Source: Escherichia coli (GTDB lineage Bacteria; Pseudomonadota; Gammaproteobacteria; Enterobacterales; Enterobacteriaceae). Taken from it: a DNA stretch of 57,101 nucleotides. The stretch is taken from the NCBI RefSeq assembly GCF_003334255.1, contig NZ_QOWU01000033.1; one strand, given 5' to 3'. Made by a program: the position numbers. Numbering within the stretch: position 1 is the stretch's first letter; each line of letters starts with the position of its first letter. Below, piece by piece: positions 1 to 3,000 of the stretch.

Positions 1-3000
1 CCGCGATATAACGAAGCTCCCGGAGCTGCGTAAGGTCTTTTTGGGCTCAATATTTGACAAAGGTCATAAGAGTTTTTATTTCCGAGACAGATGGCACAAA
101 GGGCTTTTTCCGCGGCATTATGTCTGCCTCCGCCTGACCGTCAACACTGTAATAACAGAGTGCGCCCCACTGATTCAGTACACAGCTGAACCATTCTCCC
201 AGTCTGGATTTTTGGATAGCGTGGCATTTTTCTCCACCATGCATGCAGTGAGTCCAGTAACAGTTTGCTCTTCTTCTGCCTGACCACAAGATGTGCTGGA
301 CTGGTAAACGATGGGGATACCTGCTTACGCGAGAGCAATAAGTGGCTGGCCACAATTCTCGGTACAAAACTCTGCTGAATAGCAGCGATTTTCCCAGCGT
401 GGTGCGTCGTTTGCATTTTACTGGTTCTAAGTTAACAATTATCTGTTCACTAATGACTACTCTAAAAACTTGTATCAGGACTATCACTTATTTAAGTGAT
501 ATTGGTTGTCTGGAGATTCAGGGGGCCAGTCTATAAACTTTTTACAAAAGGATGAATGCAGAAGGTTACTCTAATGGCCAGAGTGATGACAATGATGGTC
601 AGACGTTGACCTGCAGAAACTGCATTTTAATTGGTCTATAAAGTCTGCAAGAGGAATCAGGGTCAGATCAGTGAGTCTTATCGCGGCCCGAAGCTATGAC
701 TGAAAGAAGGCTGGATACAGAATTGCAACAATTTGGCAATGTCAGAACACAGAAGCTTTGCAAGCAGGTGAAAGGTTATGTCTAGCAAAAGGAGTATATC
801 AGAATACATCTACTGATGTACAAAACACAACAATAGCTTCATGATATATAAATACGTGATGACGAGTGGTACTCCGCATGGTTATTTAACTTCTCAGCAC
901 CACTAATGATCCTGAGCAACTTCGTATTTGGGCCATTGCCATGGAGTAGAAAGCTGTGTCTGAGAATGCAGAATTTGAGAAAAGAATTCGCTTTCTTGGA
1001 GAGCTTCTGAAAATGGCACGCTAACAACGTTTTGTTAAAAAATGTGAATCACTTGCCGGGGCTGCATTTTCTATTCGAGGAGAATGTTGACGTAGATATT
1101 ACAGAAATCTCAGCGCATCAGGATAAACTGCTACCTTAGGTCAACCACCAAAAGAAAATACAATACGTCCAGTTTGTATGCCTTTAATAACACATCTTTT
1201 AAATGTTGAAGAATTATCCCGCCTGCTGAAGAACGTTGCTCTGAGTGTGATAAACCTTTTTATTCTTGATGATGTCAGCGAGAAGATGGAATATATCCCC
1301 GACTGGGTCGTGGTTACCCGGTTAAACATCTGGTGGCGCTAATAAATCTGGCAAGTCACATTCTGTTGAATGCTGTGACAGTGCCTTACCGAGAGAGCGA
1401 AATTGTGGTGTTCTAGTGCATAGTCGCCACCATTCCGGATAATTCTATTGCGTTGTTTTACAAGTTCTTTTACAGCGCAGATCTGTCGCTGACGTTGAAT
1501 CAATAGCCTGGATTTCAGAACACAATGCCCGTTTGCTGGTTGGTCCGGCAGTAGCATTAATTCATTATCTGAATGAAATGTGTCAATCCACAGAAACCGC
1601 TGTCAATGACACATTTTGTCGGACGTTAACACGAGAAAGTCTGGCTATTCCGTAATGCCATCTTATTTCGTAATGGATTGAGAATGCTGGATTTTTAATT
1701 ATATTACGCGCAGTATTAATCGCGTAAATGTTTTGCGGTCAGCAACGGTGGGGGATCCATTGTTCTGTTCAATGAATACCATCATACATTTGAATCAGGA
1801 GTCGGTATGATGATTTTGGTGACGGGGGGCGCACGGAGCGGGAAGAGTCGCCACGCAGAGGCGCTTATTGGGGACTCTTCACAGGTTCTGTATATCGCCA
1901 CCTCGCAAATCCTTGATGATGAGATGGCTGCACGGATAGAACATCATCGGCAAGGCCGCCCGGAGCACTGGCGCACAGTGGAGCGCTGGCAACATCTTGA
2001 TGAATTAATTCATGCAGACATTAACCCGAATGAGGTTGTGTTGCTGGAATGCGTTACCACAATGGTGACTAATCTGTTGTTTGATTATGGCGGCGATAAA
2101 GACCCTGATGAATGGGATTATCAGGCGATGGAACAGGCGATTAATGCTGAGATTCAGTCGTTGATTGCTGCCTGCCAACGTTGCCCCGCAAAGGTTGTAT
2201 TAGTGACTAACGAAGTGGGAATGGGGATTGTGCCGGAGAGTCGTCTGGCACGACATTTTCGTGATATTGCCGGGCGGGTAAATCAGCAGTTGGCCGCTGC
2301 GGCAAATGAAGTATGGCTGGTGGTTTCGGGTATTGGAGTAAAAATCAAATGAGTAAATTATTTTGGGCGATGCTCTCATTTATTACGCGTCTGCCTGTAC
2401 CGCGTCGCTGGTCCCAGGGACTGGATTTCGAGCATTATTCTCGCGGTATTATTACTTTTCCTTTGATTGGATTATTGCTTGGCGCGATTAGCGGGCTGGT
2501 CTTCATGGTGCTGCAGGCATGGTGTGGCGCACCACTGGCGGCACTGTTTAGCGTACTTGTGCTGGTGCTGATGACCGGGGGATTCCATCTGGACGGCCTC
2601 GCTGATACCTGTGATGGCGTATTTTCTGCACGTAGCCGCGATCGCATGTTGGAAATCATGCGTGATAGCCGTTTAGGCACCCACGGCGGTCTGGCATTGA
2701 TTTTTGTGGTACTGGCAAAGATTCTGGTGTTAAGCGAGTTGGCTCTGCGTGGCGAATCGATCCTTGCATCGCTGGCGGCAGCATGTGCGGTCAGCCGCGG
2801 GACTGCCGCATTATTGATGTATCGTCATCGTTATGCGCGGGAAGAAGGGCTTGGCAATGTGTTCATTGGCAAAATTGATGGGCGACAAACCTGCGTCACA
2901 CTCGGCTTAGCCGCTATTTTTGCTGCCGTATTATTGCCGGGTATGCATGGTGTGGCTGCTATGGTGGTGACGATGGTGGCGATTTTCATCCTCGGTCAGC

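Follow-up and report, generated by a model that had tools for sequence, protein, structure and literature searches.

Origin of the DNA upstream of cobU

The question raised by this locus is what the 1806 nucleotides directly upstream of cobU in Escherichia coli consist of, and whether any gene is left in them. The window analyzed, i.e. the whole stretch of 57,101 nucleotides from contig NZ_QOWU01000033.1 (RefSeq assembly GCF_003334255.1), begins within this DNA. It is followed on the plus strand by cobU (1807-2352), an intact open reading frame (ORF) of 181 amino acids (aa), which is annotated by the Prokaryotic Genome Annotation Pipeline (PGAP) and represents the first gene of cobUST. The order downstream of cobU (cobS, cobT, ldtA, tRNA-Asn) assigns the window to the E. 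coli chromosome. A previous sequence-only reading had noted no ORF longer than 150 aa upstream of cobU, and this was borne out, as the longest one on either strand of 1-1806 comprises 146 aa (47-487, minus strand). The GC content amounts to 39-48% over 1-1800 compared to 50-56% in cobUST.

Altogether, region 1-1806 very probably represents non-functional debris of two origins, namely relics of insertion sequences (IS) at the edge of an island (1-1510) and a scar of the cbi operon (1511-1806). The assumption of the sequence-only reading that eroded remnant DNA lies at an island edge beside the cob genes was essentially right, since homology to an island-free strain starts only at 1511. Its extension to the whole region holds true for 1-1510, but not for 1511-1806, which is conserved backbone with a vestige of the cbi operon. 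A clean match to an intact known gene, named at that time as counter-evidence, was found nowhere in 1-1806.

Strain G1/2 is 100% identical to the window over 1-1806 and about 98% identical over the remainder. On this identical DNA, PGAP calls an IS66-family pseudogene (72-290, minus strand), a hypothetical protein of 54 aa (1178-1342), an IS4-family pseudogene (1315-1503) and a 'cobalamin biosynthesis protein' lacking the N-terminus (1512-1655). An NCBIfam scan of eight raw frames resulted in an IS4-family match only, and a search against Rfam at a permissive threshold showed no RNA family in 1-1806.

Boundary between island and backbone

In the island-free E. coli strain JNEC-KY208 the gene order is sbcB-dacD-sbmC-yeeA'-tmaR-pduV'-cbiG'-cobU. 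Both the window and E. coli K-12 become homologous to this strain from window position 1511; at the far end of the island, homology starts at the right boundary of CP4-44 of K-12. Since the homology starts at 1511, the boundary between island and backbone is located at 1510/1511. Compared to JNEC-KY208, CP4-44 of K-12 occupies the same position and shows the same boundary as the island in the window. The synteny comparison with other E. coli strains, which had been proposed as a check, confirmed the island edge on the cobU side in this way for both JNEC-KY208 and K-12. The segment 1517-1806 was found as a single copy in 5398 of 5426 complete E. coli genomes, while the IS block 534-1510 was present at a coverage of at least 80% in 3499 genomes and the full 1-1806 arrangement in 813.

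The K-12 annotation describes the equivalent DNA as 'cryptic prophage CP4-44', with a boundary (L002 6021, corresponding to window 1551) that lies about 40 bp inside the conserved backbone, within the probable cbiG remnant described below. Judged from the alignment, this boundary should be placed at window 1510/1511, i.e. at about 2066060-2066061 in K-12. The annotation, together with the variation of the region between strains, could be explained by a genuine prophage (CP4-44) whose end has eroded, with the broken frames as decayed phage genes. However, no phage-derived gene and no phage-like frame was found in 1-1510, where every piece that could be assigned originates from insertion sequences, and the neighboring island genes in G1/2 are metabolic and IS genes. 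A prophage origin is very unlikely on these grounds. From the earlier suggestion of a degraded prophage or island edge, the edge of a variable island remains, but 1-1510 holds IS fragments only.

Probable vestiges of the cbi operon

The homology to other Escherichia species begins at 1517-1538, slightly later than the onset at 1511 for island-free E. coli. From the start of the conserved backbone, positions 1511-1655 (plus strand) were assigned to a probable vestige of cbiG (cobalt-precorrin-5A hydrolase), in which approximately codons 89-144 of a truncated 5' part of the gene remain. The key to this assignment is a 144-aa ORF upstream of cobU in E. whittamii and in strain E69, which matches positions 1-122 or 1-126 of the 351 positions of the CbiG family NF004463 (E 5e-20 and 7e-23). 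This truncated CbiG-like ORF is open in both genomes. Window 1517-1900 shows 80-85% nucleotide identity to the two loci, and 1511-1655 corresponds to about the last 55 codons of their truncated cbiG, with a deletion of 9 nt. Between two Escherichia species, the ratio of nonsynonymous to synonymous substitution rates (dN/dS) of the cbiG' ORF was 0.61 compared to 0.13 for cobU, which indicates a relaxed constraint. A protein search with the 61-aa remnant resulted only in short, near-identical ORFs, nearly all of them from E. coli.

In E. whittamii and 'E. coli' E69 (L011 3039-3866 and L009 3050-3877), pduA-pduF-pocR and an intact cobalamin riboswitch precede the 144-aa ORF and cobUST.

The second vestige is the decayed 3' end of cbiP (cobyric acid synthase) at 1669-1806 (plus strand), which comprises about the last 50 codons and ends at the start codon of cobU as in intact operons. 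Intact cbiP runs 4-7 nt (rarely 13) into cobU in 64 enteric genomes, among them those of Citrobacter, Salmonella, Klebsiella, Raoultella and Kosakonia. An nhmmer profile was built from these 64 cbiP 3' ends and searched against targets from which cobU was left out, the loci of other species having been fetched with CobU as query. The profile matched window 1669-1803 in a collinear manner (E 6e-4) as well as four other Escherichia loci at the same position (E 9e-11 to 9e-4), with the matches ending at the cobU start. Since the match is collinear and ends at this point, the 'intergenic' DNA of about 150 bp before cobU is interpreted as the decayed 3' end of cbiP. With CbiP proteins as queries, tblastn gave matches in only two of the four other Escherichia loci (E 0.01-0.17).

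The window peptide 'SEHNAR' resembles 'AEHKAR' near the C-terminus of Salmonella CbiP, and the PGAP label for 1512-1655 is merely 'cobalamin biosynthesis protein'. Accordingly, this segment could itself be taken for the cbiP C-terminus, with 1656-1806 as plain intergenic DNA. The orthologous full ORFs, however, match the CbiG N-terminus with the E-values given above and not CbiP, while the equivalent of the CbiP motif 'YAEHKAR/YAQYKS' is located at about window 1700-1717, within the collinear match 1669-1803. The candidate based on EHNAR versus EHKAR was rejected, the true cbiP remnant being 1669-1806; the reading is already contradicted by these data and hardly credible.

Escherichia sp. MOD1-EC7003 comprises two cobU loci (L033 and L086), one Klebsiella-like with an intact cbiP (81% CobU identity) and one E. 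coli-like with the scar (93%). This suggests that a complete cob operon was reacquired. A literature search showed nothing specific; the 1995 work by Lawrence and Roth on the E. coli cob genes was not covered by it.

Insertion-sequence relics in 1-1510

Six relics were identified in 1-1503, which are, from left to right, ISEc45, an ISEc23-like fragment, an IS2-like end, an IS110-family tail, an IS66-type tnpB'/tnpC' fragment and an IS4-family fragment. The identities of the pieces, the positions of their junctions and their conservation across E. coli are direct observations.

Positions 1-64 (plus strand) represent the right end of ISEc45 (IS110 family), the remainder of which lies left of the window. 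Compared to CFT073, G1/2 carries an insertion of about 1.43 kb at window coordinates -1373 to 64, in which the transposase of ISEc45 (IS110-like) is annotated by PGAP. Its boundary is 64/65, and many genomes match window 65-330 only. The adjoining segment 65-291 (minus strand) is a frameshifted tnpC fragment of an ISEc23/IS682-like element of the IS66 family, comprising codons of about 381-457. It belongs to the ISEc23/IS682 group by nucleotide as well as protein homology: the nucleotide identity to ISEc23/IS682 tnpC is 81-83%, and in tblastn residues 408-438 of ISEc23 TnpC were 81% identical (E 2e-11), while residues 381-455 matched in a second frame. Beyond the ISEc45 insertion, the C-terminal part of ISEc23 TnpC continues with residues 452-517. 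The plus-strand frame quoted at 1-283 in the sequence-only reading does exist, but it is no piece of a gene, as it runs antisense to this tnpC remnant and the ISEc45 end.

The left end of an IS2-like element (IS3 family) is located at 318-533 (minus strand). It covers the first 250 nt or so of the element, including a decayed 5' part of orfA, and has its terminal inverted repeat at 533. Compared to the outermost 175 bp of IS2F from K-12, the segment is 83% identical, and the match stops exactly at the IS2 terminus, so that both the terminal inverted repeat and the 5' region of the IS2 group are present. Transposase genes orfA and orfB were not found in 318-533, and no match to InsD was obtained. 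The junction 533/534 is a true one, as CFT073 is common to the window over 65-533 and then diverges exactly, while K-12 is common from 532 onward. In K-12, an oppositely oriented copy of the IS2-like relic (window 318-520) with 89% identity lies between yoeA fragment 2 and yeeP (L002 10472-10662), so that CP4-44 may contain a second such relic or may have undergone an inversion.

Positions 534-763 (plus strand) were assigned to the 3' non-coding tail of an IS110-family element, whose transposase gene is missing, cut off by the IS2-like end. On plasmid p12690-3, the DNA that directly follows an IS110-family transposase gene is 74% identical to the segment, with an alignment of 234 bp (E 2e-37). 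The last 54 residues of this type of transposase are encoded in K-12 by yoeH, a pseudogene in a collinear upstream position (48% identity, E 5e-10). The assignment as a non-coding tail is drawn from these two findings. No transposase match, and hence no IS110-family transposase gene, was found in 534-763 itself. The segment also showed no match to IS66, IS2 or ISEc45 proteins, and tblastn of 534-762 with TnpA and TnpB of IS66 and of ISEc23 remained without a match.

The next relic comprises the 3' end of an IS66-type tnpB with the tnpB-tnpC spacer (763-877, plus strand), which contains a promoter motif at 817-845, and the N-terminal 165 codons of an IS66-family tnpC (878-1321, plus strand) with five in-frame stops. 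Compared to an IS66-family element on a plasmid (L003), the nucleotide sequence at the tnpB-tnpC junction is 67.6% identical over 763-877 and 68-72% identical over 763-1321. For the tnpC part, TnpC residues 1-165 matched 878-1321 in tblastn with 43% identity (E 1.5e-21), which establishes the homology to the IS66 family. The segment is 99.7% identical to the K-12 pseudogene yoeG, whose equivalent in the window is 878-1410. Since tnpB is reduced to its final 80 nt or so in 763-1321, and tnpC to 165 of 527 codons, no functional IS66 element is present, and the DNA beside the fragment belongs to other IS types. Of the two remaining frames quoted in the sequence-only reading, the one at about 880-1010 combined two frames spliced across a stop codon: NDPEQLRIWAIAME, which ends at the stop, is the true TnpC frame, while SRKLCLRMQNLRKEFAFLESF belongs to another frame (ORF 906-1010). 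The other one, with an exact span of 1178-1342, was read correctly and corresponds to TnpC residues of about 117-165.

Some of the short ORFs could in principle be real small genes, for example the 54 aa at 1178-1342, which has a PGAP protein accession, or the 40 aa at 1533-1655. The sequence is more than 99% conserved in thousands of genomes, and RNA polymerase binds upstream of yoeG in vitro. However, such high identity is due to the recent shared ancestry of strains of a single species, and the protein searches gave E. coli self-matches only, plus one near-identical ORF deposited as Klebsiella. The frame 1178-1342 lies within TnpC, in frame with the stop-ridden remainder, and for the cbiG' ORF the dN/dS described above argues against a constrained protein. 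Real small genes are thus highly improbable, and the 'hypothetical protein' at 1178-1342 is simply a spurious call on TnpC residues of a dead gene.

The last relic (1315-1503, plus strand) is an internal fragment of an IS4-family transposase gene, of which 1417-1503 corresponds to yeeH in K-12. It matched the IS4 family NF033592 of NCBIfam (E 4.1e-5), but only profile positions 133-191 of 332, and showed 79.8% nucleotide identity to a frameshifted insZ-like IS4-family pseudogene between adhE and tdk. An alignment with K-12 locates the insertion of IS5H at window 1413-1416 (CTAG target). An 'LPLYRQSEI'-like motif had made 1340-1500 a candidate for further IS66 TnpC. This was rejected, as the TnpC alignment ends at residue 165 and the segment shows the IS4 profile match and 80% identity to the insZ-like relic.

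Promoters

A consensus scan located a sigma-70 promoter of cobUST with 10 of 12 matches (TTGAGA-16-TATATT) at 1678-1705 on the plus strand, inside the cbiP remnant. The identical motif was described as the constitutive RpoD promoter of cobUST by genomic SELEX (systematic evolution of ligands by exponential enrichment; Shimada 2014, PMC3946193). Its -35 hexamer is kept in five Escherichia lineages. The same study reported TGTACA-17-CATGAT as the yoeG promoter, bound by RNA polymerase in vitro, and this motif was located at 817-845 by direct reading of the window. The constitutive cobUST promoter would be the only working element of the region, while nothing in 1-1510 looks functional.

The cobUST promoter may have arisen, or may have been kept, after the loss of an upstream riboswitch-controlled promoter. 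Genomes of the E. whittamii type can presumably still control cobUST via the pocR-riboswitch leader, while E. coli would rely on the promoter in the cbiP remnant. A possible scenario, which we put forward tentatively, is that after the loss of the cbi genes, and subsequently of the pocR/B12-riboswitch leader in E. coli, the decaying cbiP 3' end was taken over as the cobUST promoter. If true, this would be a pseudogene-born promoter, and it would account for the retention of a scrap of about 140 bp in nearly all E. coli genomes.

Weighing of the evidence and inferred history

Several points weigh against the interpretation of 1-1806 as IS relics and cbi scar. The assignment of 1511-1655 to cbiG is made by transitivity, because the segment shares 80-85% nucleotide homology with the 144-aa ORFs and these match CbiG; the window piece alone (57 aa) gave no direct match to the CbiG profile, and the E. 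whittamii CbiG-like ORF gave no match in Pfam. For cbiP, the search space behind the E-value of 6e-4 was small, and CbiP protein queries did not reach the remnant in the window itself by tblastn. Two of the IS assignments involve weak protein matches, namely TnpB residues 107-124 at 763-877 (E 0.03) and InsC residues 18-52 at 318-533 (E 0.006), and positions 292-317 and 1656-1668 are left without assignment. The number of promoter motifs in the region was not above that in shuffled sequence, and the function of the promoters rests on published in vitro SELEX data.

From the state of the different genomes, we infer the following order of insertions and deletions. The segment 1511-1806 is ancestral backbone, in which a deletion of the cbi (cobinamide-synthesis) genes in the Escherichia lineage would have joined a 5' fragment of cbiG to the end of cbiP. 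This first step, in an Escherichia ancestor, would have left the arrangement riboswitch-cbiG'-'cbiP-cobUST, which is the state of E. whittamii and E69. A second deletion in E. coli, from pduV into cbiG', could then have led to the state of JNEC-KY208. In a third step, an island of the CP4-44 type would have entered between tmaR and cbiG'. Positions 1-1510 form the end of this variable island next to cobU, at the place that CP4-44 occupies in K-12. Fourth, at the island edge, an IS110-type element may have inserted into the IS66 tnpB, an IS2-like element into the IS110-type one, and ISEc45 into the ISEc23-like relic. Repeated insertion of IS into IS combined with deletions would explain the six truncated relics, none of them with a usable transposase gene. 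K-12 would additionally have gained IS5H.

Significance for annotation

The overall biology is already known, as PGAP flags most of the pieces as pseudogenes and K-12 lists yoeH, yoeG and yeeH as CP4-44 pseudogenes. What is added here is the assignment of every relic to a family, among them the IS2-like end and the IS110 tail, which had no annotation before. Further additions are the probable derivation of the 'cobalamin biosynthesis protein' scrap from cbiG, the cbiP vestige that carries the cobUST promoter and had likewise lacked an annotation, and the boundary 1510/1511. In consequence, three uncharacterized K-12 pseudogenes were identified: yoeH as the C-terminus of an IS110-family transposase, yoeG as the N-terminus of an IS66-family TnpC and yeeH as an IS4-family fragment. 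Two corrections result for the annotation, since the 'hypothetical protein' 1178-1342 is a pseudogene frame and the 'intergenic' DNA before cobU probably a vestige of cbiG and cbiP. The value lies mostly in annotation hygiene, with little significance beyond it. Nonetheless, the locus provides a small, concrete record of the loss of de novo B12 synthesis in E. coli with cobUST kept, and of the site of the present cobUST promoter.

Other observations in the window

The shiA-amn segment (window 11084-15138; G1/2 L090 1235-5280) is inverted in G1/2 relative to the window. Two IS1A copies flank it in G1/2 and interrupt a glycosyltransferase gene of family 9. This arrangement suggests an inversion by IS1 that took place in G1/2 and is absent from the window.

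A block of about 30 kb (18900-49100) is absent from G1/2 and adjoins the fourth tRNA-Asn (49016-49091). It contains ORFs of 3163, 673, 525, 600, 609 and 434 aa, among others. Judged only from these ORF lengths, the block looks like the high-pathogenicity island of Yersinia at asnT, which carries the yersiniabactin genes. Within the block, two adjacent ORFs of 1182 and 842 aa lie in different frames on the minus strand (34124-40250). Their combined length is about that of irp2 (HMWP2), which suggests a frameshifted irp2 or a sequencing error.

Comparison with known systems

The likeness to the IS66 family, including ISEc23/IS682, is restricted to two separate TnpC fragments, residues 1-165 of one type and residues of about 381-457 of the ISEc23-like type. 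Unlike IS66-family elements, the two fragments lack terminal repeats, tnpA and the catalytic core as well as a complete tnpB, and stops or frameshifts occur in each of them. Both are relics and not elements.

At the cobU end of CP4-44 in K-12, the DNA corresponding to window 532-1806 is 99.2-99.7% identical and contains the pseudogenes yoeG and yeeH. In contrast to the window, K-12 carries IS5H at the position of 1413-1416 and, left of 532, keeps the tail of the IS110-type transposase (yoeH), whereas the window strain shows the IS2-like end, the ISEc23-like fragment and ISEc45 at this place.

Compared to the cob operon of Salmonella, Citrobacter and Klebsiella (cbiA...cbiG...cbiP-cobU-cobS-cobT, with pocR and a B12 riboswitch), the window shares the intact cobUST. 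The DNA abutting cobU is homologous to the 3' end of cbiP, and the DNA further upstream probably to the 5' end of cbiG. E. coli differs in lacking the cbi genes except for these scraps of cbiG and cbiP. The pocR-riboswitch leader is likewise gone in E. coli, whereas E. whittamii and strain E69 have kept it.

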